Source: an uncultured Bdellovibrionales bacterium (GTDB taxonomy: Bacteria; Bdellovibrionota_C; UBA2361; J135). Taken from it: DNA of 64,000 bases. The DNA lies in NCBI GenBank assembly GCA_964523015.1, contig CAZFXN010000001.1, positions 8,976 to 72,975 on the forward strand, read 5' to 3'. This document shows positions 1,706 through 43,853 of this stretch, piece by piece; the first letter of the stretch is position 1; the number at the start of each line of letters is the position of its first letter. A model generated the notes under the pieces. It did not search any database. It saw only the letters and a program-made list of their open reading frames with translations, and was not told the DNA's origin. A program made the translations under genes and the position numbers.

Positions 1706-3820
1706 ATGGCAACCGGCTCTACTGCGACACTAGTCTCAGCAACCATGCAATTAAGTGGAGAATTCAGCCAAGCCCATATCTTGGATGCGGTGGTTAATTC
1801 TCCAATCGGCAATCTTGCGATCTTTATCTATATAATTTCAGCTATCGGATTTTTTATCAGCGTTGCCTTTTTTCAAAATTATAAAATGGGTATCTGGCTA
1901 GTATTTGGCCCTGCTCTCTGGGATATCTCGGCAAATACAAGAGCAGAACAGGTAAATTTAAATTGGATGTATGCTGGGACGGTAGTACAAGATCAGGATT
2001 GGTTAACTCAATTTAGTAACCAAAGTCTTACTGATGACCTCTCTCTTGATAAGGGTCCTGCAACATTATACGTACTATGGGACTCTGTTGTTAGCGGAAC
2101 TGTACAGAATCTAACCGGTTTACTAGCTAAGATTACAAACGATCCTGCAACCAGGCTTTTTGCCAAAACTAATATTCAGGAGGGAATGCTTGGATCTATG
2201 ATCCAGAGTCCTGAGATAAGAGAGGCTGTACGGATCGCTATGGGCCCAGATTGTACTCCAATGGTCCCTGTTAGTAAGGGAAATGAACCAAAAGAGTGGA
2301 ATTTTTTAGAGATTGATGAACTAGAAACAGCACTTGATAACAGATTAGTTAAGGGAGTTCCAGAATCTGTTGTTCGAAAGTTATGTGAATACTCGATGGT
2401 CTATGAGATCTGGCAGTATGGTTCAAATTTAGAATTTGATCAGATCGATACAGAGCCGTGTGTTGTCAATCCATGGGGAGCTATAGGAACCTTTTCCCTT
2501 GGAAACTCAGAGAAATCAAGTTGTCTAGAATTTTCACGAACTACTTGGCAGGCACTTCAGGTAAGCGCTGAATTAAGATTACGAAATCTATATAAATCGT
2601 CAGGAGCAAACTCTTCAGGTGTTAGCGCACTCGGCAGAGATATCTTACCACAGTGGTCACTTGATATGTTGGCACAAGATGACTCTTCGTTAAAAAAACT
2701 TGTGGCTAGCTACATGCTCAAAAATGAGATGGATGATCTTAATTTTTTAAATCCTTCTCGCTCACTATCTGATGGGGGGAAAACTGAATCAGAGCTGAAT
2801 AAACCAGTGGAAGCAATTGTAGGTTGGCTTGAGAGAGAATCAGCTCAGAGCCAAGCTGTATTTTTTGCAAAATCAGTTCCCTACTTACAAGGGGCACTTC
2901 TTTATACCTTAGCAATTGTATACCCCTTTATCTGCATTATTATGCTGATACCTGGATTTCATACTGCAATGATCACCTGGATGGGTGCTTGGGCTTGGGT
3001 TAAGAGCTGGGATATTATGCTTTACGTCATAAGTCTCCTCTCCGGCATTATGTCAGAAAACATTCTGCATAAAGGGATGCTTCATAATAATATCGTGCAG
3101 AATGAATACGTGGGTACTGATGGAAGTGTCTCAAGCTTTGCAGATAATGTAGTCAGCAGATTGGAGGATATTAATTTTCTACATCTCGCAGTTTATAAAG
3201 CATTTGATGACGTGGATCCAAAGTTCGTTGAAGGTATTATTAACTATATCGTTGCGCTTTCGACAATCTCGATCCCTGCTATTACTGGTATATTCTTTTT
3301 ATGGGGCAGAGCATCCTCTCTCAGCTTATTCACTGATGGCATGAAAAATAAAGCAATGGATGCAACGTCAAGAAGAGCTGCTCAACTTCAAGATCAGTGG
3401 TTAAGAGATATCGAGATCGGACGACAACAAGAAGTTCGAACATCAAGTGCTGTAGGTGCTGCTTGGGGATCAGGTATCGGATTTGCACTAGGAAACTTGC
3501 CTGGCGCAATGGTTGGTACTGCTCTTGGTGCTGTTGCTGGGGAGAAATTTGGTTCTGTTAGTGCCGGATATGACCGTGGGCCAGAAGCAGCTCTATACGG
3601 AGGACGTCCGATGGTTGTCTCCTCTGGTGACTTACTAGATCCGTGGGAGAGCATGACTACTGCAGCAGGAGCCATGGTAATCCAGAAACATTTACTTGAT
3701 GCAACCGGTCAAGCTGAGGCTGATCCAGTATCAACCTATATAAATGGCCCAGATAGGTTAAGGCTAAATCAGAACCTACTCGGAAATAGAAGAAACTTTA
3801 TCTGGGGCGGATCAAGATAG
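1706..3820 (+). CDS. traG: TraG-like polytopic membrane protein (VirB6-like N-domain) of F-type T4SS
   Basis: 704 aa with multiple hydrophobic helices in the first ~550 aa and a Gly-rich C-terminal segment (GAAWGSGIGFALGNLPGAMVGTALGAVAG). It follows the traH-like gene with a 19-nt gap. Confidence 0.45.
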   Translation: MATGSTATLVSATMQLSGEFSQAHILDAVVNSPIGNLAIFIYIISAIGFFISVAFFQNYKMGIWLVFGPALWDISANTRAEQVNLNWMYAGTVVQDQDWLTQFSNQSLTDDLSLDKGPATLYVLWDSVVSGTVQNLTGLLAKITNDPATRLFAKTNIQEGMLGSMIQSPEIREAVRIAMGPDCTPMVPVSKGNEPKEWNFLEIDELETALDNRLVKGVPESVVRKLCEYSMVYEIWQYGSNLEFDQIDTEPCVVNPWGAIGTFSLGNSEKSSCLEFSRTTWQALQVSAELRLRNLYKSSGANSSGVSALGRDILPQWSLDMLAQDDSSLKKLVASYMLKNEMDDLNFLNPSRSLSDGGKTESELNKPVEAIVGWLERESAQSQAVFFAKSVPYLQGALLYTLAIVYPFICIIMLIPGFHTAMITWMGAWAWVKSWDIMLYVISLLSGIMSENILHKGMLHNNIVQNEYVGTDGSVSSFADNVVSRLEDINFLHLAVYKAFDDVDPKFVEGIINYIVALSTISIPAITGIFFLWGRASSLSLFTDGMKNKAMDATSRRAAQLQDQWLRDIEIGRQQEVRTSSAVGAAWGSGIGFALGNLPGAMVGTALGAVAGEKFGSVSAGYDRGPEAALYGGRPMVVSSGDLLDPWESMTTAAGAMVIQKHLLDATGQAEADPVSTYINGPDRLRLNQNLLGNRRNFIWGGSR

Positions 3821-8026: not shown

Positions 8027-8596
8027 TTGAATATGATTACTGAGAACAGAAAAACATATATAGCAGCAATAAAGGTAGTCGTACTCTTGGGATGCATTGT
8101 CTTTCTCGTTAGCTGCTCAAGCCAAAAACCTCCTGTTGCGAAAACACCACCTTTATATGACACGGCAAAAAGACAGTTAGCTCCTGAGCCGGTTTATAAT
8201 AGACTGCGCTGGGTCCATTTACCTGAAGTTATTCCTTACAAGGACAATAACAAGGACAAGAAAAAAATCTCTAAGAGCCAAGACTCACTAGAAGACAGGC
8301 CAATGATTTTTCCAATTATGAATTTTGATCTCAAAGATGGAACATTAGCTGAAGCTGCCCAGATGATTGGGGCTAGTGCCAGTTATCGTAGCTACTGCGA
8401 TCCATCAATCGCAGACAAACGACTATCTTTAAATATGCTTGGCACAATTCATGAGTTAGCCAATAGTATTTCAAGGTTAGTTGATGTTGAGATTATAATT
8501 GATCATTCTGCTAGGGAAGTTAGGTTTATGCCCCTAGGCGTAGAGAATAAATTAAGGTTTTTTGATAATACGGTAAGTGAATATGAGCATAGATAG
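8027..8596 (+). CDS. T4SS-associated lipoprotein with secretin-N/TcpQ-like C-terminal domain
   Basis: Lipobox LVSCSS. The C-terminal segment LAEAAQMIGASASYRSYCDPSIADKRLSLNMLGTIHELANSISRLVDVEIIID has an STN/N0-like pattern. It overlaps the traC start by 20 nt. Confidence 0.4.
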   Translation: MNMITENRKTYIAAIKVVVLLGCIVFLVSCSSQKPPVAKTPPLYDTAKRQLAPEPVYNRLRWVHLPEVIPYKDNNKDKKKISKSQDSLEDRPMIFPIMNFDLKDGTLAEAAQMIGASASYRSYCDPSIADKRLSLNMLGTIHELANSISRLVDVEIIIDHSAREVRFMPLGVENKLRFFDNTVSEYEHR

Positions 8597-11351
8597 GTTA
8601 ACACGGGCTCGACTTTATAAAGATGAAGCTCTGTTTAATAAACTACTCCCTTTTGCCAGATATGATATCGAGCAAGGTGTGTTTGTACACGCCGATGCTT
8701 CATTATGGTTGATGTACGAGTTGGAGCCTCTCCTTATAACTGCCACCTCTGATGCCTCTGCTTATCAAACATGCTCTAGTATTCAAGAGCTCTTAGATTC
8801 ATTAGATGTTAGTATTAGTGTCCAGTTTAATTGGGTGGTAACGTTCGACATTGAAGGTCTACTTCAAAAGGCACTCGAGCAGTACCCAGTATCCGGCGTT
8901 GCTGGTTGGATGGCTCGTCGCTGGAACAGAATGATGAAAAAGGCAGCTCGTAGCTCTTTTATTCATCAACGACCTAGAAAAATGCGACTTATCCTTTCTT
9001 TTAGACATGATCCACCATGGAGCAAGGGAAATATATTTCAAGAGCTTAAGAGAGCTTTTTCTATCCTGATTAAAGGTAATGTTGGATTCTCTGCAGATCA
9101 AAGACGAGCAGAGTATCTAAACTACGCCAACAAATTTAAAGGAGAGATTGAGGGTAAAGTATCTCGACTAAGAGACCTTGGTTTCTATCCAAAAAAAGTT
9201 GATGGGCAAGCTTTAATTGATACACTCTATCCGATACTGAATCGACGAAGCGTTAAAGGTGGTAAGTTTAAAAAAGGGCGCACCTCCTCAATCCCTGTGC
9301 CAGTTTTTGATCCGCTTGATTTATTATCAAATCAACTCTCTGAAACTGCTGTTGAGCATCCGCAAAATGGTATTATCAAAAAAGATGGTAGAGTTTTTAG
9401 AACTGTCTCGATGGTAAAATCTCCTAATCAAGCTTTTCCTCTGATGATTGCTCCGCTTCAATCGGCGCCATATGAAAATATTATAAGTGTTACTTATTCA
9501 AAAGATCCGATGCAAGCTCAGATCAAAAAACTTGATACGCTTGATAGCACCCTTGGTCTTCGTGAATTTACTAGCATGGGTAGAGGTAATCAAAAGATTC
9601 AACATCAGATTAGATCTATTAGGGCCGCAAGAGAGAGCTTATATAATAACTCCACTCAAATTGTCCGATTAGGTATCCATCAAACATTTATCTGTCAAAA
9701 TGAACAGGAAGCTATCAGAGCAACCTCTGAGGCAATGGCAGCTTTTCCTCAATTAAATGGTGCTCGTGGCATGGTTCACGAAATTGCTGACCTTGGTGTA
9801 ATGATCAATTCATTACCGGGATGCTATGAGCCAGCACTTGATGGACGTGGATGGACATCTGTATTGCAATCTTCACGCGCAGTTAGAATGCTTCCTTTAT
9901 GGGGCAATTGGAAGGGCAGTAAAGGCTCACTCTTTCTCCTACCAAATCTTTGGAACCGTGAATTAGTAGGATTCGATCTATTCGACTCTAATATTGCACC
10001 TAACGTATTAATAAGCGGAGTATCTGGTGCTGGTAAGAGTTATCTCCTTAACTTTCTTCTGATAACTCTTAATAGAGGGCACTATTCAACTCTCGCAAAT
10101 GGAATGACTGTTGAACGTCCACCAATTACCTTCGTCTTTGACAAAGGAATGCCTAATCAACCGTGTGGATTTGAAAAGATTGCTCATCTATTTGGTGGAA
10201 GAATATACGAAGCTACCCCTTCTAAAGCACCAGCCATGAACTTCTTGGCTCGCTTAGGAGACTGCCCTCACGATAACACCAACGAAGATTTCAAAGATCT
10301 AGTGGATATCTGCTCTGACATAGTTGCAGATATGGCTTCTGAAAATAATCGTCCGTTATCACGACTTCAGGTAGGTGATATTATCACTGCTCTTTTAGAA
10401 GCCCATAGAATCTATAGAGCTGGTCCAATGAAGAGGCAGTTTATTTTAAGTGATGTTGTCGCAGTTCTCCGTGCTCCAAAGAGAGTCGATGAGGATGAGG
10501 CTACAGCTATGCGTCGTGTCGAGATCGCTCTTTTAATGTCTGAGTACTATGGAGAGGGTACATATGCTAGATTCTTTGATAGACCAGGAGCATTAAGACT
10601 AAAAGAAAGATTTATCGTGTTCGATCTTAAGGGATTAAGTAGAAATCCTGACCTACAAAGGGTATTTTTAAAGATCGCTATGCTCTGGGCTGACGAGGTC
10701 ATGAACGATCCAAAAGAGCTCGACTCGAGAAAGGTTCTTGTGTTCGACGAAGCTCATGATCTTATCGGTAAAACATCTTCAGGTGTTATCGAATCAGCTT
10801 TCAGACTTTATCGTAAGAGAAAAGGTATTGTTATTGCCGCTTCTCAATCTGGTGAAGATTTCTATGTTGGTGCTGGTGGACAGGCTATCGTACAAAACAG
10901 CGCGCATAAGATCTTTTTGAGACAAGATCCAAGTAAGTTTCATTTAACAGCAAAAGCGTTCAATCTAAATGAACAACAGAGTGATGTAATTATGCGTTTA
11001 CGTACTATTAAAGGTGTTGAATCTCAATTTTATCTTCTCTCAGATATCGGAGAAGCCGCCCTTGTTCTACCTCTTGAGCCGGCGTACTACTGGGTTAGTA
11101 CAAATAATGGTGACGACAATCAATTATTTCAATCAGTACTTCAGGAATGTAATGGTGATTTTGCAGCAGCACTTGAGAGAGTAAGTATTATAGCTCCAAG
11201 TGGCGCAAGTGCGTTTGCACAGTACAGAGCTGCTATGCAGCAGGCTCAAGAGCAATCTCGAAATGGCGAAAATTCCGTTTCAAAAACAATTAATACCGCT
11301 TTAGGTCAAAATACAGGTTCAAATTCTATTATAAAGGAGCAGCAAATATGA
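8577..11351 (+). CDS. traC: TraC/VirB4-family T4SS ATPase
   Basis: 924 aa with Walker A GVSGAGKSYLLNFLL and Walker B VLVFDEAHDL. The length fits F-type TraC. Confidence 0.85.
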   Translation: MNMSIDRLTRARLYKDEALFNKLLPFARYDIEQGVFVHADASLWLMYELEPLLITATSDASAYQTCSSIQELLDSLDVSISVQFNWVVTFDIEGLLQKALEQYPVSGVAGWMARRWNRMMKKAARSSFIHQRPRKMRLILSFRHDPPWSKGNIFQELKRAFSILIKGNVGFSADQRRAEYLNYANKFKGEIEGKVSRLRDLGFYPKKVDGQALIDTLYPILNRRSVKGGKFKKGRTSSIPVPVFDPLDLLSNQLSETAVEHPQNGIIKKDGRVFRTVSMVKSPNQAFPLMIAPLQSAPYENIISVTYSKDPMQAQIKKLDTLDSTLGLREFTSMGRGNQKIQHQIRSIRAARESLYNNSTQIVRLGIHQTFICQNEQEAIRATSEAMAAFPQLNGARGMVHEIADLGVMINSLPGCYEPALDGRGWTSVLQSSRAVRMLPLWGNWKGSKGSLFLLPNLWNRELVGFDLFDSNIAPNVLISGVSGAGKSYLLNFLLITLNRGHYSTLANGMTVERPPITFVFDKGMPNQPCGFEKIAHLFGGRIYEATPSKAPAMNFLARLGDCPHDNTNEDFKDLVDICSDIVADMASENNRPLSRLQVGDIITALLEAHRIYRAGPMKRQFILSDVVAVLRAPKRVDEDEATAMRRVEIALLMSEYYGEGTYARFFDRPGALRLKERFIVFDLKGLSRNPDLQRVFLKIAMLWADEVMNDPKELDSRKVLVFDEAHDLIGKTSSGVIESAFRLYRKRKGIVIAASQSGEDFYVGAGGQAIVQNSAHKIFLRQDPSKFHLTAKAFNLNEQQSDVIMRLRTIKGVESQFYLLSDIGEAALVLPLEPAYYWVSTNNGDDNQLFQSVLQECNGDFAAALERVSIIAPSGASAFAQYRAAMQQAQEQSRNGENSVSKTINTALGQNTGSNSIIKEQQI

Positions 11352-23918: not shown

Positions 23919-24458
23919 TTACCCTAAGTGAGTGAGCAACCGAACAGGAGATCCTGTGAATGCAGAAGCAACAGGAACTGGCCCAGGTCCAAAGGTTCGA
24001 TCAATAAGAGCAGCCCAACAAGTAATATTAATTCCTTTCAATGTAGCTTTAGTATGAGCTTCCAGACTTGAGCGCGCTGTTGTGATAACATCAGTGACAA
24101 GAATTGTTCTCGCACCTTTATATCTCTCCCCATGACCATTTGATAGTTTCTTTTCCAGATACTGCTCAAGAGGAACCTCTTTACTATCAGGTCGAAACTC
24201 AGAGAAAACAACGGAGAGTCGTTCAGCAAAGAAGCTATAGCCGCCGGGTAATTTTAAAATTAATTCTGGAAACTGTTGGTTATTAACCTCCAAGATTCTT
24301 TTAGCTACATATCTAGCACAGATATTAAGGTCTTCATCACTGAGATCTTCCACCCGATAATACACACTACTCTCACAACGAGAGCCAATGCTAACAGGTT
24401 CATCAAACTCTTCGGTAATCTTACTAAAAATCTCGCTTACTTCCTCAAAGTCGACCAT
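23919..24458 (-). CDS. type I phosphoribosyltransferase-domain protein
   Basis: PRPP-binding-like motif TILVTDVITTARSSLEA followed by ALIDRT. Confidence 0.5.
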   Translation of the reverse strand: MVDFEEVSEIFSKITEEFDEPVSIGSRCESSVYYRVEDLSDEDLNICARYVAKRILEVNNQQFPELILKLPGGYSFFAERLSVVFSEFRPDSKEVPLEQYLEKKLSNGHGERYKGARTILVTDVITTARSSLEAHTKATLKGINITCWAALIDRTFGPGPVPVASAFTGSPVRLLTHLG

Positions 24459-26232: not shown

Positions 26233-27450
26233 TTAAACTAGAAATTCGCTAATAGGTTGGCTAAAGAATTCTTCGAGTGGAACCCCACCTGAACCAATAA
26301 TGTATACAGAAGATTTTGGATACAATGACTTAAAGACGGAGAGCCCTTTCGGTGTCTTAGGTAACCCGCTCTTAACCTCTAAAGCAAAAATTTGATCTCG
26401 CTGACTAATTACGAAGTCCACCTCATTTTGACTATCTTGCCAGTACGAAAGGTGCCAACTTTTATCTGGAATTGTATTTAAAATATGAGCACCGACAGCG
26501 TTTTCAACAAGACGACCCCATAAGGTTGTATTTTTCCTTGCAGACTCAAAATCATATGTAAGCGAGGAGCTAACAAGCGCATTGTTCCAAGCTATAAGCT
26601 TAGGACTACTGGCTCTTTTTCTTCTCTGTCCTTTAGCAAATTTTTGAATACCTGCAACAAGATATCCACCATTTAAGAGATCAAGATAGTGGGCAAGTGT
26701 TGTAGTATTTCCGGAATCTTGAAGCTGTCCGAGCATCTTATTGTATGACACCACCTGAGCTGGATAAGTACAAACTATTCCAAAAAGCGCACGCAATAAG
26801 GCTGGTTTATGAACCACCGCCCGTTGAAGTACATCGCGAGATATTGCAGGATCAACAAGCGAATCGGATATATATCTCTTCCAAATAGCTTCCTCCGACC
26901 TAAATACTGCAGCACCTGGATATCCACCAAAGTAGATCCACTCATCAAGGGACCAATCAAACGCCTTTTGACACTCTGTAAAACTCCAGTGCGGGAAATA
27001 ATGTAACAAAAATCTCCCAGCTAGGCTTTCGGTTAATCCCTGTTCAAGTAACAATGCCGACGATCCTAAAATTAGAGGCTTAACTATCTCCTTTCTTTTT
27101 TTCTGCCCACTTTTTTTTTGTCCATCCCATAAGCTTTTAATCACCTCACTCCAGCCATGGATTTTTTGTGCTTCATCTAATATGAGGAGGCACTGTCCGC
27201 TCTTCCTTGCGATAAGATTTGCGGTATTCCATTGAGCTTCTATCCACTCTGGAGTGAGAGGTCGTGGTGAATCTGCACTGGAATAGTGAAAAGGCCAATT
27301 TAAAGTTTGTGCAATCTGTTCTGCTGCAGTTGATTTGCCTACTTGCCTTGGGCCAATGATCGCATGAATGATAGGTGGCGATACCTGCAAAAGTTTAATA
27401 ATCTTTTTTGTTTCTTCCCTGATAATCACTTTATTCAAATCGATCTTCAT
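26233..27450 (-). CDS. AAA-type ATPase with DUF4143-like C-terminal domain
   Basis: Walker A IIGPRQVGKST and Walker B LLILDEAQ. Same family as the ORF at 46973..48142 (paralog). Confidence 0.65.
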   Translation of the reverse strand: MKIDLNKVIIREETKKIIKLLQVSPPIIHAIIGPRQVGKSTAAEQIAQTLNWPFHYSSADSPRPLTPEWIEAQWNTANLIARKSGQCLLILDEAQKIHGWSEVIKSLWDGQKKSGQKKRKEIVKPLILGSSALLLEQGLTESLAGRFLLHYFPHWSFTECQKAFDWSLDEWIYFGGYPGAAVFRSEEAIWKRYISDSLVDPAISRDVLQRAVVHKPALLRALFGIVCTYPAQVVSYNKMLGQLQDSGNTTTLAHYLDLLNGGYLVAGIQKFAKGQRRKRASSPKLIAWNNALVSSSLTYDFESARKNTTLWGRLVENAVGAHILNTIPDKSWHLSYWQDSQNEVDFVISQRDQIFALEVKSGLPKTPKGLSVFKSLYPKSSVYIIGSGGVPLEEFFSQPISEFLV

Positions 27451-27598: not shown

Positions 27599-28582
27599 AT
27601 GAAAAATATCAACTATTGTCTGATAATCTTATTTTTACTCACATTATACCCATTGAATTTACTCGCCGACACCAAAATTGGTGTTATTTTACCAATGTCA
27701 GGTGATTTCGCTCGCTATGGAGACAAAATACGTCAGGGCTTAGAAAGTGAACAACTGCCTCCTGGAATTCGCCTTGTCTACGAAGATGAAGGATGTCATC
27801 CAAAAACGGCCACAACTGCCTACAAAAAATTAAACGCGGCTGATGGCATTAACATTTTTCTAGGCCCGTGGTGCGGATCCCCTCAAACTGTTGTCGCAAG
27901 TTTAATGAAGCGAAATAATGCTATCTCCATACTTGGTAGTAGTGCGCCAAGGCGTGTCTTTGAATTATCTGGGGGCAAGATGTTTTCAGTCCAACACTCT
28001 ATCGAAGAGGAATCAAAATTTAATGCTGAAAATGCCTATAAAATAGGTGTCCGAAAGGTTGTCATAATATTTCTTGAAAATGATTTTAGTCGTGCCCATG
28101 AGGCAGCATTTAGGGAAAATTTTAAGGGCCAGGGTTTAGAAACTCTAACTTATTCATCACCCGATGCCTCTGCTCTTAAGCCACTGGTGACGAGAATAAA
28201 ACAATTAGGTCCCGATACTCTCTATGTTCCTGATGCATTTCCTTTAATGCATGGATTAATGAAGGAGTTGGCCGCGATCGCTCTTAATAATCTTCGTGTA
28301 TTTTCAGTCTATTCTGCACAATCCGATGATGTTCTTAGTGCAATAGGGCCTGTAGGTGACGGATTAATCTTCTCATATCCTAAGATAGATAGTGAAGCAC
28401 TTCTTTATTACCCAAAGCTTGCGATGCAGGTATTAACTTTTGGGCTAAATGCTTGTCCAACTCGTGATCCTAATTGCATTTCGAATGCCATCAAAGCTCA
28501 ATATAAATTTGATGAATATGGGGTCCTGCCCGGCGAGCTAGCCTTAAAAATAGTGAAGGGGGGGGGAATTGTATGGTATTAA
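27599..28582 (+). CDS. ABC transporter periplasmic substrate-binding protein (branched-chain amino acid/LivJ-like family)
   Basis: Signal peptide. KIGVILPMSGDFARYGDKIRQGLE is characteristic of the Peripla_BP_6 N-terminus. Confidence 0.65.
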   Translation: MKNINYCLIILFLLTLYPLNLLADTKIGVILPMSGDFARYGDKIRQGLESEQLPPGIRLVYEDEGCHPKTATTAYKKLNAADGINIFLGPWCGSPQTVVASLMKRNNAISILGSSAPRRVFELSGGKMFSVQHSIEEESKFNAENAYKIGVRKVVIIFLENDFSRAHEAAFRENFKGQGLETLTYSSPDASALKPLVTRIKQLGPDTLYVPDAFPLMHGLMKELAAIALNNLRVFSVYSAQSDDVLSAIGPVGDGLIFSYPKIDSEALLYYPKLAMQVLTFGLNACPTRDPNCISNAIKAQYKFDEYGVLPGELALKIVKGGGIVWY

Positions 28583-28731: not shown

Positions 28732-31353
28732 ATGAAGCAGCGGCAGCATCTATCACTTGTAAATGAAAAGGGGGGTACTCCCAAAACTGTCGTCCGTGAG
28801 GTTGTGGGAGTTGAAAACCTCTCCTCGATCCAAAACGATTTAGTTAAAAAGTATGTAAGCAAAGTTGGTGTTAAGGGAGTTTTAGTTGGTGCCCTTTTAG
28901 GGGAGGAGCCATGGGATCTAAGACCGATTTTAATTCATGAAAGCAAATTATCAATTCTAAGATTTAGTAACCCAGCTTGGGTAATTGATAGAAATAAACT
29001 TAACTCCCTCCGTTCTATTTATGCCCATACAAAAAATAATTCCGATCTAATTAAGTCAATCATAAGTTATAATGAAATTGATGGACAAATTTGGGTCTTA
29101 AGAAGGTTTCATCAAAATACCCTTTCTAATATTACAAAAGCAGCAATTGGAACTGCCTCTCTGCATCCTGTTCAGCAGGCTCAACAATTAATCTCCACAG
29201 TTTATTCTTTACACTCTAGTGGAATTATTCACGGCCATATCAATCTTAACAACGTAGGAGCAGATGAAGACTCTCCTACTCTATTAGACTATGGATTCGG
29301 CGCCCTTCAAAAGGCAGATGATTGCGCTCCCGAGATCAAAGCTGGACTTCCTCCATCTTTAGCCAGCGATATATTTGGTCTTGGTCAAACTCTAGCTCAG
29401 CTATTAACTAATAATCTTAGCGAAGCTCACTCTTTATTTTTAAACCGCATGCTTTCACATGAGCCAAGTGAACGCCCATCTATTAATGAAGTTAAGACAA
29501 CTTTTTTTGTAGAAACAAAGTCAAAAAATAATATTACTTCATTCCCTTCAGTTTCAGGAAAAGTAATTACATCTGGATCTTTTATTAATGCGCCAGCTAT
29601 CAGACCTCCTACTAATCCTCCTATAGAAACAGTTAAACAAAATATCTCTTCAAGCTTTGTCAATGATCTGATCAAAGAAGATCTCCTATCTAGTAAAGCA
29701 TCCACCAAACCTAAAACTCCTATTCGAACAGAAAAACTCACCACTTTTATACAACCCAACATTAGTGTACCTGAAGCTGCTTCAAATATTTCAGCAAATA
29801 CTTCAGCAAATACTTCAGAGCGTCATCTTCAAGCGCGGAAACCAACTGTTGCTCTTAGCCAGGTCGAGTCTTTTAAAATTGATATCATCACTCCAAGAGA
29901 AAAAGTCAGAAGAGCTGAGCAATCAAAAAGGGAGCTCACCCTAAAAGCAAATAAGAAAGATGACCTTTCTAGCACTCGCTTTTTTGTAACAATCGCTATG
30001 TTTACTGCTCTTATCTCTCTATTAGTAGGTGTTGGGGTTTTTCAATTCATGAAACCGGCAATGTCACCTAAAGAAGATTCCGACTTTGAAGCATTCTGGG
30101 TAAGCGGTCAGCCAACTTTACAAGAAAAAGTTGTTGAAGCTGCGGTACTAAATAACGATGTAGAAGCACAACAAGTGATCGTCAACTATTCATTAAAAGA
30201 TAGTAAGATTAAAGGAGTTCGAGAAGGTCTAGTAAAAATAGCATTTAATAAGGCTTGGATTAATCAATTAACAAGGGCAGATAAAGAGATCATATTTTCA
30301 CTAGCCCTAGAAAAGCCGAACGGTAAAGTTTTAAGTACTCTGCCACCAATTGCAAAAGCTTCTCCTGCTGTTATATTTTCAGTGCTCTCTCAACTTGAGG
30401 GAGACGAACCTTCTTTAACATCGTTACCTTTAAGTACATTCACCAAACTACCTCAACCATATGGAAAGCTTTTTGCTGATTTAGAAAAGTTAGGGATAAA
30501 ACAGATTGGAGCACCTGAATCTAGAGGCCTAATACGTCTTATAAATAATGATTTTTCCTCTAATAGTGTTGCTAACTTTTTTGGTTCAAGTGGTAATGGT
30601 AAAATTCCTCTATTGTTACCACTCCTAGAGATCTATGACGGCAAATTCGCATTGTCTCTAGTTTCAACACTACATGACTTACCATCTGGAGTTGTTCCAA
30701 CCTTTGATTGGTTCTTTGAACCATCCGAAGTTGATTGGAAAGAGGTTTCAGCAATAGCCCTCTTAGAACTCTCCGCAGGAAAGCCATCATTTGATTCTCT
30801 TTCTCTTGAACATGAATTAGATCTCCTCTCGTTTCCAAAGGCTCCTATAAGACAGGTCGTTAGTGCTAAACTAGAATCTAGATTTGGAGTAGAGATTAAA
30901 CCGGTACTAAAAGTTATTGAGGAGAGCAACCAAAAACTTACCCGATCACAGATTGTCACACTAGTGTCAGCATTAGCCTATAAAGGTCAATACTCGCGAA
31001 GTTACATATCACTCTGGTTTGCTAGCAATCCTGACCCTCAAGTAACGCTAGATCTCCTTATGGCTAGAAATAGACTTGATACTAATGATTTCTTTAATTT
31101 GGAAGCATCTAGATATTTAGCAGATAAAGATTGGGATGCTAGTTTCAATACTCTGAAACAGATGAGCGTTCACCTAGAGCAGGTAGCTCGTGCTTTAGCA
31201 TACTCAAAAATGGATCCAACAGATAAAGAGCAACTAAAATTCCTAAGAAAAATGTCAAATATTGAGCCAAGTAATACAGTTAGAAAAGGGATTTTAGAAA
31301 AGATTAAACCGTTTGAGCCAAGATCTACCCTTACCTATCAATCAGTTGAATAG
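28732..31353 (+). CDS. membrane-anchored protein with N-terminal Ser/Thr-kinase-like (pseudokinase) domain
   Basis: Kinase-like subdomains are present: HGHINLNN in place of HRDxKxxN (catalytic Asp replaced), DYGFG (DFG), CAPE (APE), DIFGLGQTLAQLL and EPSERPS (subdomain XI). A TM helix FFVTIAMFTALISLLVGVGVF follows at ~aa 400, then a ~450-aa C-terminal domain. Confidence 0.5.
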   Translation: MKQRQHLSLVNEKGGTPKTVVREVVGVENLSSIQNDLVKKYVSKVGVKGVLVGALLGEEPWDLRPILIHESKLSILRFSNPAWVIDRNKLNSLRSIYAHTKNNSDLIKSIISYNEIDGQIWVLRRFHQNTLSNITKAAIGTASLHPVQQAQQLISTVYSLHSSGIIHGHINLNNVGADEDSPTLLDYGFGALQKADDCAPEIKAGLPPSLASDIFGLGQTLAQLLTNNLSEAHSLFLNRMLSHEPSERPSINEVKTTFFVETKSKNNITSFPSVSGKVITSGSFINAPAIRPPTNPPIETVKQNISSSFVNDLIKEDLLSSKASTKPKTPIRTEKLTTFIQPNISVPEAASNISANTSANTSERHLQARKPTVALSQVESFKIDIITPREKVRRAEQSKRELTLKANKKDDLSSTRFFVTIAMFTALISLLVGVGVFQFMKPAMSPKEDSDFEAFWVSGQPTLQEKVVEAAVLNNDVEAQQVIVNYSLKDSKIKGVREGLVKIAFNKAWINQLTRADKEIIFSLALEKPNGKVLSTLPPIAKASPAVIFSVLSQLEGDEPSLTSLPLSTFTKLPQPYGKLFADLEKLGIKQIGAPESRGLIRLINNDFSSNSVANFFGSSGNGKIPLLLPLLEIYDGKFALSLVSTLHDLPSGVVPTFDWFFEPSEVDWKEVSAIALLELSAGKPSFDSLSLEHELDLLSFPKAPIRQVVSAKLESRFGVEIKPVLKVIEESNQKLTRSQIVTLVSALAYKGQYSRSYISLWFASNPDPQVTLDLLMARNRLDTNDFFNLEASRYLADKDWDASFNTLKQMSVHLEQVARALAYSKMDPTDKEQLKFLRKMSNIEPSNTVRKGILEKIKPFEPRSTLTYQSVE

Positions 31354-36094: not shown

Positions 36095-37054
36095 ATGCCG
36101 ATGAACAAAGAGATGAGCAATGAGATGAATAAAGCACCGAATAATACAATCTTCTTTCTATCACTATTGTTATTGGCACTTCTTGTCAGTGGGACAAAGG
36201 CCTGTCAAGAGGACTATGATTTAGGATCAAGAACGAGTACTACACCAACATCTGAGAGTACTCCAACACCGACTCCATCTCCTACGCCTACTCCTACTCC
36301 AACACCAGAGGAGACAGTCACACCAACAGATACTCCAACGACAACACCGACTACCACACCAAGTGCAACACCTACTCCGACTCCAACTCCTGATGATGAG
36401 GATGAAGAGGAGGCGCAGGGCCAGGGACAGGCAAATGCTTTACAAAAAAGCTTAGCTGCAATCTCAGGCGGCAAAAAGAATCAAAAGATCGGCAACTGGG
36501 GAGATCAATGGAAGAAAAAAGATCCTGCACTTAATGGTGAGGAGATAGATCTCATCCCAGGCACAGTCTCCGATCCCGATAACGATGGCTATACAGACTG
36601 GCTTGAGAATTTATTTGGAACAGATCCATCAGATTACGGATCGTTCCCAAAAAATATAACAACAACAGCGTTAGCACAGCGACTTGTTGGGTTGGATGAT
36701 GACGGAGATGGATTATCCAATGAGCTTGAAAAGCAGCTCGGAACTCATGAAAACAATGGGGATTCTGATGGTGATGGCTCAAGAGATAATGCCGAAAAAC
36801 TATCCGGCACGGATCCACTAGACAAAGAGAGCAGGCCAAACGATCTAGATGGTGATGGATTAAGTGACAGTTTTGAAAATGCGCAGGGTACTAATCCTAC
36901 TAATCCAGATACAGATGATGATGGACTAAGAGATGATCTTGAATTGGCTTTAGGCACTAATTCATTCGATCCAGATACTGACAAAGATGGTATTTTAGAT
37001 GGTAAAGAAGTGGAATTAGGATCCGACCCTCTAAAACCAGAGCAGTCTCGATAA
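36095..37054 (+). CDS. secreted protein with Pro/Thr linker and thrombospondin type-3-like Ca-binding repeats
   Basis: Signal peptide, then TPTPSPTPTPTPEET...TPTPTPD. Six or more D-x-D-x-D-G repeats follow (DPDNDGYTDW, DDDGDGLSNE, DSDGDGSRDN, DLDGDGLSDS, DTDDDGLRDD, DTDKDGILDG). Confidence 0.6.
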   Translation: MPMNKEMSNEMNKAPNNTIFFLSLLLLALLVSGTKACQEDYDLGSRTSTTPTSESTPTPTPSPTPTPTPTPEETVTPTDTPTTTPTTTPSATPTPTPTPDDEDEEEAQGQGQANALQKSLAAISGGKKNQKIGNWGDQWKKKDPALNGEEIDLIPGTVSDPDNDGYTDWLENLFGTDPSDYGSFPKNITTTALAQRLVGLDDDGDGLSNELEKQLGTHENNGDSDGDGSRDNAEKLSGTDPLDKESRPNDLDGDGLSDSFENAQGTNPTNPDTDDDGLRDDLELALGTNSFDPDTDKDGILDGKEVELGSDPLKPEQSR

Positions 37055-39099: not shown

Positions 39100-41196
39100 A
39101 TGAGCTTATCGATATCAGGATACACTACAAGCCTAAACTGTCTCGACATGGAATATCCAATCGAGCAATGTTTACGATCGCTCCTACCTTTCTGTGATGA
39201 AATTATCGTTGTTGATGGTGGCAGTAAAGACGGAACAATTGAATTAATTCAAAGTATCTCTAAAAAAGAGCCCCGAGTTAAGCTTTTCGTAGAGCCGGTT
39301 GATTTTTCTCATCCACGCTGGGCGATTTATCAAGATGGATATCTAAAGCGAAGTGCCAGATCTAAATGTACTGGACAGTATTGCTGGCAAACAGATAGTG
39401 ATGAGATCGTAGACCCATCCTCCTATGATAAGATCCCTCTTTTACCTGAAGTCATTACTAATAGTGGTCATGAGTTAGTTATGCTTCCGATGGTGGAGTT
39501 CTGGGGATCTTACAACAGGATTCGTGGCGATTTTATGTCATGGAAAAATCGCTTCTCTTTGAATAATAAAAATATTACTCATGGCATTCCACAGCAATTT
39601 AAAAACTACGATCAAAACGGTCATGAATATCCAAGGCCATTTGAATCAGATACCTGTAACTATATCTATGCCGACAAACTAGTTGAGGTAGTGCCAATCG
39701 CACCGATCGGTATTACCTCAGAGGAATTTAATAAGCACACCTACGAAGCTAGAAAGCAATGGTTTATGGAGAGTTTAGAAAGGATGCCTCATGTCCTGCA
39801 TGTTTCTTGGCTATCTTTAGAAAGAAAAATCTCTCACTACCAGAAGTTTTGGCAAAACTTTCATGCCTCGATGTACAATTTACAGATCGAGGACAATGCT
39901 CAAACAAATGTAATGTTTGATAAGCCTTGGGCTTCAGTGACTAAAGAGGAGATCAAAGCTAGGGCAACACAACTGATCCAAATTGGCCCAAGATCTTTTC
40001 ACAAAAAAATTGATCCGACTAAGATAGGACCAACATTTGAATATACGCGTCCTGTGCCAAATGACCTAATTGAATGGCAGAAAAATTTAAGTTCTAATAC
40101 TCCTTTAGATGTTCAAACTGAATCTCCTTCTCAAACTCCTACGGTTAAAACAAGTTCTCCACCCTTAATTTCAGTAGTTATTCCAAGTTACAATAAAGGG
40201 AGCTATCTTGCTGAAACAGTTGAGAGTGTTTTAAATCAGGATTATAAAAATACTGAGATCATTATTGTTAATGATGGTAGCACTGACTCAACAGCTGAAG
40301 TTGCTAAAAACTTGATCAATCAGTATCCACATCGCTCTATTAGTTTAGTTGATAAACAGAATGGCGGCGCACCAGAGGCGCGAAATGCCGGCATTGAGCG
40401 CGCCAGAGGCGATCTCTATATGGCCCTTGATGGCGACGATCTCTTACAGCCCTCATTTCTTAGACGAGCCTTACAAGAGATGCATGATCGAAACGCGAAT
40501 GTTGTCTGCTCAGATCTAGAGCTATTTGGAAAAGAGACCGGAGTTTGGCGACCAGCTTTGTATAATGATTACGTCATTCGATACGACAATGTTATTCCGA
40601 TGGGTTCATTAGCAGAGAAGCGATTGTGGCAAGAAGTCGGTGGCTTTAAGCGTGGATTTCCATTTGCTGAAGATTGGGAATTTTGGGTTGCCTGCTCACA
40701 AATTGGGATGAAAGTTTATAAGATCGAAGAACCCCTTTTTAGATACCGAGTTACTGGAGATGGGCTTTCTGAGATATTTAGAAATAGTCATAGCGAAATG
40801 ATGAGTGTTATTATGACCTCTCACCCTCATCTATATCCAGTTGAAGAGGTGATCCTTGCCCATGATCTTTTAATAAAGAATTTTCCAGAACGGTTCGTTA
40901 AGGGCTGGCAAAAACGGGACGCTTTATTTAACAGTGAATGGCACCTTAAGTTTTGGCTTGGCTGCGTTTGTGAGGGTCAAAACGCGCTACAAGAAGCGTT
41001 AAACTTATATACTACGGCAGTGCAATTAACTAATTTCAAAAATTGGCAGCCGCTATACAGGATCGGCAAGATCCTTATGCATGCTAACGAACCTAAACAG
41101 GCTTACGAGTTTCTCTCTGCTGCAAGAAATCTAAGGCCAGACATGAAAAAGCACATTGAGCCACTACTAGCTAAGGTTCAACAGGTGAATGTTTAA
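39100..41196 (+). CDS. two-domain family-2 glycosyltransferase with C-terminal helical repeat region
   Basis: First GT-A-like segment IIVVDGGSKDGT. Second canonical GT2 segment ISVVIPSYNKGSYLAETVESVLNQDYKNTEIIIVNDGSTDST...LDGDD. Confidence 0.65.
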   Translation: MSLSISGYTTSLNCLDMEYPIEQCLRSLLPFCDEIIVVDGGSKDGTIELIQSISKKEPRVKLFVEPVDFSHPRWAIYQDGYLKRSARSKCTGQYCWQTDSDEIVDPSSYDKIPLLPEVITNSGHELVMLPMVEFWGSYNRIRGDFMSWKNRFSLNNKNITHGIPQQFKNYDQNGHEYPRPFESDTCNYIYADKLVEVVPIAPIGITSEEFNKHTYEARKQWFMESLERMPHVLHVSWLSLERKISHYQKFWQNFHASMYNLQIEDNAQTNVMFDKPWASVTKEEIKARATQLIQIGPRSFHKKIDPTKIGPTFEYTRPVPNDLIEWQKNLSSNTPLDVQTESPSQTPTVKTSSPPLISVVIPSYNKGSYLAETVESVLNQDYKNTEIIIVNDGSTDSTAEVAKNLINQYPHRSISLVDKQNGGAPEARNAGIERARGDLYMALDGDDLLQPSFLRRALQEMHDRNANVVCSDLELFGKETGVWRPALYNDYVIRYDNVIPMGSLAEKRLWQEVGGFKRGFPFAEDWEFWVACSQIGMKVYKIEEPLFRYRVTGDGLSEIFRNSHSEMMSVIMTSHPHLYPVEEVILAHDLLIKNFPERFVKGWQKRDALFNSEWHLKFWLGCVCEGQNALQEALNLYTTAVQLTNFKNWQPLYRIGKILMHANEPKQAYEFLSAARNLRPDMKKHIEPLLAKVQQVNV

Positions 41197-42344: not shown

Positions 42345-43853
42345 TTATTGTCGTGATTTTAAAAACGCTCTGGCATCTGCCACAAGTGAATCAGGAAAAT
42401 TTAAAGCGTATCCATGACCGACTCGCATCTTTGTAAATGGATCAGTCTCAATCTCTTCGGCACAATCAGAGATAATTTGTGAAGTAATTAGGTCGCTATT
42501 AGCACTGAGATACTCCTGATCATTTTTTAAATCTCCCTGCCAGGCTACTTCAAGTGAGTTATCGATATTAACAAACCAGCCCTTATGAATAGCTCTTACA
42601 AGTAGCTCTCTAGATGACATTGATAAGGCATCTGTATGTTTAAACCAACCAACATCCTGAAGGGCAACTTTACGAATAGCAAAATTCATCCCAGTAAATG
42701 GAGAAGAAAAAAGTTTATCAACTTGAACATGTCCGTCTGGGCCCTTTAATGATTCTTTAAGGGGACTCATTGAGCCACTTGGAATAATAATCGAAACTCG
42801 ATCTTCACGGAAAATTTTTATCGCTTCTAAAGCAAAATTTGAAGGAACAGTTGCCCCAACATGTAAAAAGGAGAGATAAAGGGAGCAAGAGGACTGTGCG
42901 CCAACATTCAGGGCTGCCCCAAAGGATCGTGTCAAACTTCTTACATACCTAAGTCGAGAACTGATTTTCCCAATCTCACCATCCTTTAAAGAGAGTAATT
43001 TGCGAAGCTCTTTGGCGACTTTTCTATCCTCAGAGTAATCAACAAGTAACACCTCAAAGTTTGTCATTGATTGCTGTGATAAATTCTCCAAAGTTTTCTT
43101 TAAAGCATCATCACAAGCATTAACCGGAACAATATAAGAGAATCCCCTTTCAACTATGTTAGCTGCGTGGGAATACCGATTAAAGATCCGAGACATCTCT
43201 GGCAGAAGCGGATCATTACCCTGACCGGTTTTATTATCTTCATACATTCGGTAATAAGAGAAAACTTTAGGAATCTGCTTTACGGTATGTCGTCCCCAAA
43301 CCCGCATCCATAGATCATAATCCATGCAGTAATAAAGCTCTTCATCAAGAAGCTTACCATCATGTCGACGAACCTCTTCAATTACTGATCTTCTAAAAAA
43401 TATCGAGGGTTGTGTAGGAATTGAGTAAGAGCACCAGTACTTCAGTAGATCATGCCAAGTTCTTGGAACGTTAACGACAGTGTAATCAACTTTTCCCGCG
43501 CGATCAGTAATCTGACACGCGCCAACAATCATCGAATGGATCTTTAGCTCTTCGGCCACCAATGGAAAAATATTCGGCTCATACCAATCATCAGAATTAA
43601 GCCAAGTGACGATATCACCAGTCGACTTTGCAAAACCCTTATTTAAGGCATCGGTTTGGCCGTTATCTGGCTCACTTGTCCAGATCAGATGTTTGTATGA
43701 TTTAAGGATCTCAACGGTATTATCGGTCGATCCTCCATCAACAACTATATGCTCAACATTTGGATAATCTTGGGCCAGGACTGATTCAATCGTATCTCGA
43801 ATAAATTCCCCCTGATTAAATGAGGGAGTGATAATCGAGATCTTCGACATCAT
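42345..43853 (-). CDS. two-domain family-2 glycosyltransferase
   Basis: ISIITPSFNQGEFIRDTIESVLAQDYPNVEHIVVDGGSTDNT. Second GT-like half FEVLLVDYSEDR. Confidence 0.7.
   Translation of the reverse strand: MMSKISIITPSFNQGEFIRDTIESVLAQDYPNVEHIVVDGGSTDNTVEILKSYKHLIWTSEPDNGQTDALNKGFAKSTGDIVTWLNSDDWYEPNIFPLVAEELKIHSMIVGACQITDRAGKVDYTVVNVPRTWHDLLKYWCSYSIPTQPSIFFRRSVIEEVRRHDGKLLDEELYYCMDYDLWMRVWGRHTVKQIPKVFSYYRMYEDNKTGQGNDPLLPEMSRIFNRYSHAANIVERGFSYIVPVNACDDALKKTLENLSQQSMTNFEVLLVDYSEDRKVAKELRKLLSLKDGEIGKISSRLRYVRSLTRSFGAALNVGAQSSCSLYLSFLHVGATVPSNFALEAIKIFREDRVSIIIPSGSMSPLKESLKGPDGHVQVDKLFSSPFTGMNFAIRKVALQDVGWFKHTDALSMSSRELLVRAIHKGWFVNIDNSLEVAWQGDLKNDQEYLSANSDLITSQIISDCAEEIETDPFTKMRVGHGYALNFPDSLVADARAFLKSRQ

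Follow-up and report, generated by a model that had tools for sequence, protein, structure and literature searches.

A kinase-like fold in a bacterial membrane protein raises the question of whether the protein phosphorylates other proteins or has kept the fold for another use. We examined one such case, an 873-aa ORF in a 64,000-nucleotide stretch of DNA from an uncultured Bdellovibrionales bacterium (hereafter the window). The ORF starts with ATG, has GAGG-type ribosome-binding sites upstream and lies exactly where an initial annotation, made from the sequence alone, had placed it. Full-length homologs share 38 to 46% identity with the protein. Our results support the description given in that annotation: the protein is receptor-like, crosses the membrane once and carries a kinase fold at its N terminus. 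The reading that we prefer, at a probability of roughly 60%, is that of an inner-membrane protein whose Hanks-type fold has turned into a pseudokinase and acts as a scaffold or switch rather than an enzyme. The features of the gene are listed in Table 1.

Table 1. Features of the putative receptor-like pseudokinase gene (nucleotide positions in the window)
Feature	Position	Strand	Basis or remark
Whole ORF, receptor-like pseudokinase	28732..31353	+	873 aa plus stop; ORF list
N-terminal extension, residues 1-45	28732..28866	+	AF2 secondary structure, pLDDT
Kinase-fold (putative pseudokinase) domain, residues 46-262	28867..29517	+	
W61-D62-L-R64-P65 motif, beta1-beta2 turn	28912..28926	+	Family counts, AF2 strands
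Arg77, beta3 (VAIK) Lys position	28960..28962	+	hhalign, family counts
Arg124, gatekeeper position (end of beta5, directly before hinge)	29101..29103	+	hhalign, family counts
Catalytic-loop equivalent, H167-G-H169-I-N-L-N-N174	29230..29253	+	HMMER/hhalign alignments
D186-Y-G, DFG equivalent	29287..29295	+	Aligned to DFG
Short activation segment up to A199-P-E201	29296..29334	+	Family lengths; APE at 29326-29334
Juxtamembrane linker, residues 263-415	29518..29976	+	pLDDT, composition
Single transmembrane helix, residues 416-441, RFFVTIAMFTALISLLVGVGVFQFMK	29977..30054	+	Hydropathy
C-terminal domain, residues 445-873, probably periplasmic	30064..31350	+	All-alpha, ~26 helices, putative HEAT-like solenoid

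The resemblance of residues 46 to 262 to protein kinases is far beyond chance. Pfam Pkinase (PF00069) matches residues 96 to 228 with an E-value of 2.3e-5, and the 24.4 bits fall below the 31.7-bit gathering score. All seven close members match Pkinase in the same weak manner (best E-value 5.4e-6). A family profile searched against the PDB matched more than 1,200 kinase chains (best E-value 2.6e-11), and a deeper profile reached 6e-18 with TYK2 JH2-JH1 as the top sequence match, in which the family 'lvHGHispsNi' lies over 'LVHGNVCGRNI' in JH2. Pairwise hhalign comparison to canonical kinases gave probabilities of 99.6 to 99.75%. Foldseek found at least 2,000 kinase matches, and the best fold matches include the active bacterial Hanks kinases S. 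aureus PknB and PknS. The bilobal ePK/Hanks fold was found with its five-stranded N-lobe plus alphaC and its helical C-lobe. In the AF2 model the domain is preceded by an extension that is disordered at residues 1 to 20, continues with a short strand and ends in a helix (residues 32 to 45) packed before beta1; L30 in this extension is almost invariant in the family.

The C-lobe landmarks are retained (N174, D186, APE, D213 and R248), and those named in the initial annotation are found where it had located them: HGHINLNN at 167 to 174, DYG(FG) at 186 to 190, APE at 199 to 201 and the subdomain XI Arg at 248. Residue counts were taken over up to 149 representatives of at least 311 sequence clusters. 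Both metal ligands align to the canonical residues and are present in 149/149 representatives, N174 in the catalytic loop and D186 as the DFG Asp; the second DFG position varies (P, F, H, Y, or A). The APE motif is at least 94% conserved.

The remaining canonical residues are replaced or missing. At the beta3 position, where the earlier claim was that no clear VAIK Lys is evident, hhalign places 'LSILRF' over PknB 'VAVKVL' whether run in global or local mode, and R77 is Arg in all 147 representatives counted. In canonical kinases this Lys-to-Arg change is the standard kinase-dead mutation. At the gatekeeper position, 'IWVLRRF' lies over 'PYIVMEY' (hhalign) and R124 is Arg in 149/149; this profile register has no structure behind it and is possibly off by one. 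No conserved acidic residue that could serve as the alphaC Glu was found at positions 78 to 120 of the representatives: the column aligned with it holds hydrophobic residues, and R/K/E/Q occur at position 94. The GxGxxG loop is missing from the family consensus 'GvlVGal.G...WDlRP'. In place of this nucleotide-clamping loop stands W61-D62-L-R64-P65 (W61 and D62 each in 134/145 representatives, R64 in 133/146, P65 in 138/146), with AF2 strands at 50 to 56 and 63 to 69. HGH replaces HRD consistently in every HMMER and hhalign alignment to PLK1, Aurora A, TYK2 JH2 and PknB, which bears out the proposed Asp-to-His replacement at position 169. H167 is found in 149/149 representatives, G168 in 147/149 and H169 in 140/149 (Asn in eight and Arg in one), and where H169 is Asn or Arg all other cleft residues stay invariant. 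The Lys of HRDxK is also lost (S/C/V/T/A/N at position 171). The activation segment from DFG Asp to APE Ala has only 12 residues in the window protein (family median 17, range 12 to 28) as compared to 21 to 43 in five canonical comparators, and it does not contain the P+1 motif G[T/S]xx[Y/F]xAPE.

Overall, the canonical catalytic set is largely missing from this kinase fold. The pseudokinase reading follows from the loss of the beta3 Lys and alphaC Glu, of both Asp and Lys of HRDxK, of the Gly-rich loop and of the P+1/activation loop, and protein phosphorylation by this domain is very probably impossible. The operational definition of a pseudokinase in a recent survey (PMC12599244) is the loss of beta3 Lys, HRD Asp and/or DFG Asp. 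Two of these three are replaced here (Arg77 and His169), as the pseudokinase prediction had it.

On the opposite view, the protein would be an active Hanks-type receptor Ser/Thr kinase of the canonical kind, in which the Lys and Asp have shifted, the Lys as in WNK kinases, and were overlooked by alignment. Bacterial receptor kinases have the identical architecture, and the active PknB and PknS are among the top fold matches of the protein. An alternative Asp/Lys arrangement was sought among the 149 representatives, but the N-lobe and catalytic loop contain no Lys conserved at 90% or more and no additional Asp/Glu at that level except D62. Since the HGH/HRD alignment is also unambiguous throughout and even the best Pkinase match among the seven members is weak, with the window protein below the gathering threshold, we consider a canonical kinase very unlikely.

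An exhaustive HMM search (E-value ≤ 1e-30) found at least 311 cluster representatives at 50% identity. Mean pairwise identity is 42 to 45% in the kinase-like lobes, 37% in the C-terminal domain and 18% in the linker; the kinase-like domain is conserved at least as well as the rest of the protein. Together with the invariance of the substituted residues, this conservation indicates a site that was rebuilt and is under selection, not one in decay. The earlier label 'degenerate' is misleading in this respect. W61-D62-x-R64-P65, R77, R124 and H167-G-H169 appear to constitute an alternative cleft set beside the metal ligands N174 and D186.

Strict invariance of N174, D186, R77, R124 and H167 would be expected of a working active site and counts against a passive scaffold. 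The protein could accordingly be viewed as an active atypical enzyme regulated by its periplasmic domain: either a non-canonical kinase of proteins or small molecules, in which His169 would be the general base and Arg77 would bind the phosphates, or some other nucleotide-dependent transferase. The high conservation of the domain, equal to or above that of the ectodomain, fits such an enzyme as well. There is also precedent in several predicted pseudokinases that proved to be enzymes, SelO among them. According to the survey, some pseudokinases gained catalytic activities other than phosphorylation, and Legionella SidJ is in its list (PMC12599244); JAK JH2 domains bearing HGN still bind ATP (PMC6287396). 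Set against this, H169 is Asn in 8/149 and Arg in 1/149 representatives, so His169 is not an obligatory base. The family has neither a Gly-rich loop nor an alphaC Glu, the 12-residue activation segment lacks a P+1 loop, an Arg sits at the gatekeeper where adenine normally packs, and the beta3 Arg is the very change used to inactivate canonical kinases. We regard an atypical enzyme as unlikely, though the most credible of the alternatives to a pseudokinase scaffold or switch. In a bolder and somewhat more doubtful proposal, Arg77/Arg124/His167-Gly-His169/Asn174/Asp186 together with Trp61-Asp62-x-Arg64-Pro65 would make up a new kind of functional site, either a non-phosphotransferase catalytic center or a dedicated pocket that binds an anionic metabolite or a second messenger. 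If true, this would define a new class of Bdellovibrionales-type transmembrane sensor/enzyme coupled to a periplasmic HEAT-like solenoid. The active site in this family is replaced by an invariant set (beta3 Arg, gatekeeper Arg, HGH/HGN) and not eroded; in other 'dead' kinases this pattern preceded discoveries of new chemistry.

Following the kinase-like domain, the linker is low in complexity, rich in Ser/Thr/Ile/Lys/Pro and predicted to be disordered (pLDDT below 50 from residue 261); its length in close relatives varies from 30 to 189 aa. The single transmembrane helix of the initial annotation was found at residues 416 to 441 as the only hydrophobic segment above 1.6 (Kyte-Doolittle maximum 2.38), and 146/154 family representatives have a hydrophobic segment in the middle of the protein. 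The window protein has no N-terminal signal peptide or other secretion signal. The topology was examined statistically and points to N-in/C-out. In 142 members, the N-terminal flank of the helix carries on average 2.65 K+R versus 1.68 on the C-terminal flank, with net charges of +1.07 versus -0.70 (p ~1e-10). Cys is depleted six-fold in the C-terminal domain (0.14 per 100 aa versus 0.88 in the kinase domain), and 80/148 C-terminal domains have none. These biases support a cytoplasmic location of the kinase-like domain and a periplasmic location of the C-terminal domain. An extracytoplasmic part of ~450 aa had been claimed; a domain does follow the helix, and its size is slightly smaller at ~430 residues. 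Profile searches of this all-helical domain against PDB and Pfam gave weak HEAT-repeat signals alone, the Pfam family compared being PF13646 HEAT_2, so that a HEAT-like solenoid is a tentative assignment, and profile and fold searches found no specific relative of it, eukaryotic or other.

For the preferred pseudokinase scaffold or switch, we infer the lack of phosphotransferase activity, the binding of a partner and all signaling steps as follows. The putative HEAT-like solenoid in the periplasm would bind a partner or ligand, and the signal would cross the single helix, most simply via an altered oligomeric state. The cytoplasmic pseudokinase domain may then serve as a docking or allosteric module. 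An anionic ligand or a nucleotide may occupy its remodeled cleft; equally conjecturally, the Arg/Asp network of the domain may close the cleft off. A true kinase could plausibly phosphorylate, and dock on, the long disordered linker rich in Ser/Thr. No other kinase gene was found within the 64-kb window.

The gene is located between ispG and rsmE. This order is conserved at seven related loci, with rsmE inside the retrieved DNA at six of them, and the labeled relatives among the syntenic loci are uncultured Bdellovibrionales. GC content of the gene (0.378) is native when compared to the window (0.398). It is a vertically inherited chromosomal gene in a Bdellovibrionales-type lineage. The initial annotation had also suggested a host-mimicking scaffold, which we read as an acquired eukaryote-like protein that acts on signaling in the host or imitates it. 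The kinase fold is indeed eukaryote-like, and T4SS-like genes of the F type and a bacterial protein with thrombospondin-type-3 repeats are also encoded in the window. But the protein is anchored in the membrane without a secretion signal, its top fold matches include bacterial Hanks kinases, and its ectodomain has no particular eukaryotic relative. With the conserved synteny, the native GC and at least 311 clusters, the host-mimicry idea is unsupported and in our opinion highly improbable.

No conserved partner gene was found at these loci; the conserved neighbors, ispG and rsmE, have housekeeping roles and offer no hint of function. HMBPP, the product of IspG, was considered as a ligand and is not proposed, adjacency being the sole basis. 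Directly upstream of the gene are a Peripla_BP_6 gene and an AAA_14/DUF4143 gene. Both are missing from the loci of all relatives, and we rejected them as functional partners since they are not kept. A promoter/terminator scan found no terminator between the gene and rsmE, and scanning the window for Rfam families and tRNAs found nothing.

Hanks-type receptor kinases (PknB/Stk1 and X. citri PknS) have the same order of kinase fold, disordered linker, one transmembrane helix and extracytoplasmic domain, and share the C-lobe landmarks. The present family differs from them in beta3 Arg, His for HRD Asp and gatekeeper Arg, in the absence of alphaC Glu and Gly-rich loop, in the short activation segment of the window protein, and in an ectodomain that appears to be a HEAT-like solenoid instead of PASTA, beta-propeller or TPR. 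A kinase domain followed by a C-terminal transmembrane helix is the commonest bacterial architecture.

Seven families of bacterial pseudokinases are named in two publications (ActPs1-3, GLW, CP1, DYD and DLHK; PMC12599244; bioRxiv 10.1101/2025.01.12.632604), and MviN and EssB/YukC are further published examples. As described there, the seven families resemble the present one in having an STK-derived domain with conserved non-canonical catalytic motifs. The HGH motif has no occurrence in PMC12599244 or bioRxiv 10.1101/2025.01.12.632604. ActPs2, a subfamily of actinobacterial Act2, has beta3 Arg, HRD Asp changed to Asn and a DFG deletion (PMC12599244). We rejected membership in ActPs2, with which beta3 Arg alone is shared; here every one of the 149 representatives has the DFG Asp, 94% have His at the HRD position and the labeled relatives are Bdellovibrionales MAGs. 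In the GLW family, the motif GLW replaces HRD, Leu/Trp replaces the beta3 Lys, a C-terminal transmembrane helix is present and the hosts are mainly proteobacteria (PMC12599244). The present family likewise belongs to a Gram-negative lineage; with HGH and beta3 Arg it shares only the C-terminal helix among the motifs tested, and GLW membership was also rejected. In the passages compared, which covered ActPs1, ActPs3, CP1 and DYD in part, no family joins HGH to Arg at both the beta3 and gatekeeper positions, a retained Asn and DFG Asp, and a HEAT-like ectodomain. Bacterial receptor pseudokinases are less 'poorly described' than the initial annotation had it, and its point holds insofar as none of those published has the present motif set in the passages compared.

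YukC/EssB is a precedent for a scaffold of this layout, with a cytoplasmic pseudokinase, one transmembrane helix and an all-alpha-helical extracellular domain of unassigned fold family, and is a non-catalytic structural hub that does not bind ATP (PMC9600267). It is a much smaller Firmicutes protein encoded in the T7SSb operon (206-aa pseudokinase domain, 140-aa ectodomain). YukC has lost essentially all kinase motifs, whereas the present family keeps the Asn, DFG Asp, APE and subdomain IX/XI residues. No T7SSb genes (EssC ATPase, EsaA, WXG100) flank the present gene, and membership in EssB/YukC was rejected. JAK JH2 pseudokinase domains carry H-G-N for H-R-D and are regulatory, ATP-binding and essentially non-catalytic (PMC6287396); exactly HGN is found in 8/149 members of the present family. 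JH2 domains are eukaryotic and cytosolic, stand in tandem with an active JH1 and keep the beta3 Lys, and the present family differs on all these points. We take this resemblance as motif-level convergence and not as evidence of common descent. The HRD position can be regarded as a natural experiment in which His and Asn interchange while the rest is fixed, in parallel to JAK JH2.

By these motifs the proteins appear to form a large family of bacterial pseudokinases that is previously unlisted in the catalogs compared and distinct from the published families. On present evidence it is a new family inside a known category and not a new kind of system. To our knowledge, the cataloguing of bacterial pseudokinases has only just begun and hardly any of them has an assigned function; the present family enlarges the list by at least 311 clusters (50% identity). 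A tractable cultured relative would allow the role of a receptor-like pseudokinase to be asked in a Gram-negative, probably predatory lineage. The size of the family was under-reported by word-index protein searches, which found 7, 12 and 6 matches as compared to at least 311 by HMM. A genome scan with a four-sequence alignment identified three loci, two of them labeled uncultured Bdellovibrionales.

Translation of sub-ranges of the pseudokinase gene, whose GC content is in line with the window's (0.378 vs 0.398), recovered every motif named in the initial annotation: HGHINLNN at residues 167-174, DYG(FG) at 186-190, APE at 199-201 and the subdomain-XI Arg at R248. The single TM helix also claimed there corresponds to one strongly hydrophobic segment (see table), and a Kyte-Doolittle scan of the protein found no further 19-residue segment above 1.6. 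The helix is preceded by a folded N-terminal part of 262 residues and a low-complexity linker of 153 residues rich in Ser, Thr, Ile, Lys and Pro; the C-terminal part that follows is present as proposed, at about 430 residues vs the suggested ~450. An N-terminal signal peptide was not found in the protein. With this result and a single TM helix, N-in/C-out is the sole realistic orientation. Family-wide (n=142), Lys plus Arg residues flanking the helix average 2.65 N-terminally and 1.68 C-terminally, with net charges of +1.07 and -0.70, respectively (Wilcoxon p ~1e-10). Cys density per 100 aa is 0.88 for the kinase-like domain but 0.14 for the C-domain (zero in the C-domain of 80 of 148 sequences), as expected for a domain facing the oxidising periplasm. 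These two statistics agree and support a predicted cytoplasmic kinase-like domain and periplasmic C-domain.

The Pfam Pkinase model matched the window protein with 24.4 bits (E 2.3e-5) over residues 96-228 only, under the 31.7-bit gathering score, and the top single-sequence match in the PDB was Corynebacterium glutamicum PknG (E 0.008). A profile of seven family sequences matched more than 1,200 distinct kinase sequences in the PDB (top match PLK1, 2.6e-11). With 106 sequences the profile gave 1,494 matches at E<=1e-5, led by TYK2 (6e-18), with Aurora A at 2e-16. Comparison with five canonical kinase domains by hhalign returned probabilities of 99.75% (global) and 99.6% (local, deep profile); three of these domains were database sequences, and PknB and PKA served for numbering only. 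The C-lobe residue correspondences are also present in HMMER alignments to PDB kinases. The single sequence is weak and the profiles decide: we regard the predicted kinase fold of the N-terminal domain as settled.

Word-index searches found seven relatives only, and genome and metagenome scans added three further distinct full-length copies. Searching 1.84 billion cluster representatives exhaustively with an HMM yielded at least 311 at E<=1e-30; the best 150 among them all score 397 bits or more. Both domains occur in 148 of the 154 family sequences analysed, and residue conservation was counted in 149 representatives having the kinase-like domain.

In every alignment (HMMER and hhalign), H167-G168-H169 matches H-R-D and APE matches APE; N174 takes the position of the catalytic-loop Asn and D186 that of the DFG Asp, and D213 and R248 correspond to the Asp of subdomain IX and the Arg of subdomain XI, respectively. 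Both hhalign runs paired LSILRF with VAVKVL of the comparator, therefore Arg77 occupies the beta3 Lys position; they also paired IWVLRRF with PYIVMEY, so Arg124 lies at the gatekeeper position. This N-lobe register, from a profile alignment that may be off by one, is consistent with AF2 strands 72-78 and 119-125. GxGxxG was not found in the kinase-like domain, where the beta1-beta2 turn holds W61-D62-x-R64-P65 instead (each conserved in 91-95% of representatives). Between positions 78 and 120 the 149 representatives share no conserved acidic residue, thus the alphaC Glu is missing in any register. The segment from the DFG Asp to APE is 12 residues long in the window protein (family median 17, comparators 21-43) and contains no P+1 motif. 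The field's operational definition of a pseudokinase is loss of the beta3 Lys, HRD Asp and/or DFG Asp (PMC12599244). With Arg77 for the first and His169 for the second, the protein falls within that definition, as the initial annotation had predicted.

Arg77 is conserved in 147 of 147 representatives, and R124, H167, N174 and D186 in all 149; G168 (147/149), D213 (148/149) and R248 (146/149) are nearly invariant. Position 169 is His in 140, Asn in eight, Arg in one and Asp in none. Averaged over all pairs of the ten closest members, identity is 45% for the N-lobe, 42% for the C-lobe and 37% for the C-domain, and 18% for the linker and 19% for the TM helix. From this conservation and these regional identities we conclude that strong purifying selection maintains a non-canonical set of residues in the cleft; judged from the alignments, the active site is rebuilt, not decayed. 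The catalytic-residue and conservation tests make a canonical active kinase very unlikely. The main rival is that the invariant cleft functions as an active site, or as a specialised ligand-binding pocket, of a new type. Both metal ligands and both arginines are invariant, which leaves room for anionic ligand binding or other chemistry, but tolerance of Asn at 169 counts against His169 as an essential general base, and we consider this rival rather improbable.

Members with Asn at 169 read HGN, exactly as the JH2 pseudokinase domains of JAKs do; JH2 domains bind ATP but are considered non-catalytic (PMC6287396). According to PMC12599244 and bioRxiv 10.1101/2025.01.12.632604, 25 of 42 catalogued bacterial STK families have a kinase domain with a TM helix C-terminal to it, the most frequent layout. 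The two sources describe seven bacterial pseudokinase families: ActPs1-3, GLW, CP1, DYD and DLHK. As portrayed in PMC12599244, the actinobacterial ActPs2 has the beta3 Arg in common with this family but differs in a change of HRD to Asn and in a deletion of DFG; the mainly proteobacterial GLW shares the C-terminal TM helix but has GLW for HRD and Leu/Trp for the beta3 Lys. An HGH motif is mentioned in neither source. The order of pseudokinase, TM helix and helical ectodomain recurs in YukC/EssB, a structural hub that does not bind ATP (PMC9600267); however, YukC/EssB belongs to the Firmicutes type VIIb secretion system, is much smaller and was not found among the top structural matches of the window protein. 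From these comparisons, within the descriptions cited, we therefore conclude that this is an undescribed family inside a known category.

We assign a probability of roughly 0.6 to the whole protein being a receptor-like transmembrane pseudokinase. Its putative HEAT-like solenoid in the periplasm would recognise a partner or ligand and would be joined to the cytoplasm by the single helix and by the long, disordered linker, whose Ser/Thr-rich sequence is a likely site of phosphorylation and docking; the cytoplasmic kinase-fold module would serve as a switch or platform instead of a protein kinase.

Seven related loci (L001, L002, L003, L005, L007, L009 and L010) have ispG (GcpE) directly upstream, and six of these carry rsmE downstream in the fetched DNA. 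In the seventh, L007 (only 30% identity), a truncated unannotated ORF is followed by the contig end. L004, a near-identical second copy of L010, also has ispG upstream; L004 1415-4149 and L010 4001-6736 are 99% identical, and the L004 frame breaks between residues ~66 and ~78, either an assembly error or a frameshift. In the window, rsmE starts 22 nt past the pseudokinase stop codon, and no terminator was found between them. The AAA_14/DUF4143 and Peripla_BP_6 genes are inserted in this genome only, whereas closer relatives have ispG directly upstream; both were excluded as partners because they are missing from relatives. Identity to closer relatives is 74-82% for IspG and 81-91% for SodB, against a far lower 38-46% for the pseudokinase protein. 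A 179-aa ORF exceeds IspG (82-85% in all closer relatives); it has no Pfam match and encodes a very conserved protein without assigned function. Organism labels on relatives read 'uncultured Bdellovibrionales bacterium' (two MAGs only). Neither the gene neighbourhood nor the lineage of relatives supported horizontal gain from a eukaryotic host or otherwise favoured the host-mimicking scaffold initially proposed, and an effector of that kind is highly improbable.

No second kinase gene was found within the 64-kb window. In L006, the locus of P0007 (the most distant close homologue), an active-looking ankyrin kinase is encoded nearby, a possible active-kinase partner from a single instance.

Features in the window and in related loci
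Feature	Location	Strand	Remarks
ORF with weak TraG_N match	window 1706-3820	+	under Pfam cut-off
924-aa ORF	window 8577-11351	+	TraC_F_IV and P-loop_TraG matches
179-aa ORF	window 23919-24458	-	divergent from ispG
AAA_14/DUF4143 ATPase	window 26233-27450	-	between ispG and pseudokinase gene
Peripla_BP_6 (LivK-like) periplasmic binding protein	window 27599-28582	+	between ispG and pseudokinase gene
Pseudokinase ORF	window 28732-31353	+	873 aa; ATG start; GAGG-type ribosome-binding sites 5' of start
TM segment, pseudokinase protein	residues 416-441		RFFVTIAMFTALISLLVGVGVFQFMK; Kyte-Doolittle maximum 2.38
319-aa protein	window 36095-37054	+	four TSP3_bac (bacterial thrombospondin type-3) repeats, E 4e-29
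Large glycosyltransferase family-2	window 39100-41196	+	two GT2 domains; weak TPR match under Pfam cut-off
Large glycosyltransferase family-2	window 42345-43853	-	
720-aa kinase	L006 9439-11601	+	strong Pkinase match, ankyrin repeats; 660 nt downstream of P0007 homologue, same strand
915-aa TraC/TraG-P-loop gene	L008 5516-8263	-	~3 kb from distant homologue P0006

Genes resembling those of F-type type IV secretion or conjugation are located ~17-27 kb upstream of the pseudokinase gene. The TSP3_bac protein may be one of the 'eukaryote-like' proteins of the initial annotation, and the two GT2 genes suggest that a region for making polysaccharide or glycan begins ~8 kb downstream of the pseudokinase gene. 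The 64-kb window contains no tRNA genes and no Rfam family at the gathering threshold. The sign of the GC skew switches twice, near 16 kb and near 42 kb.
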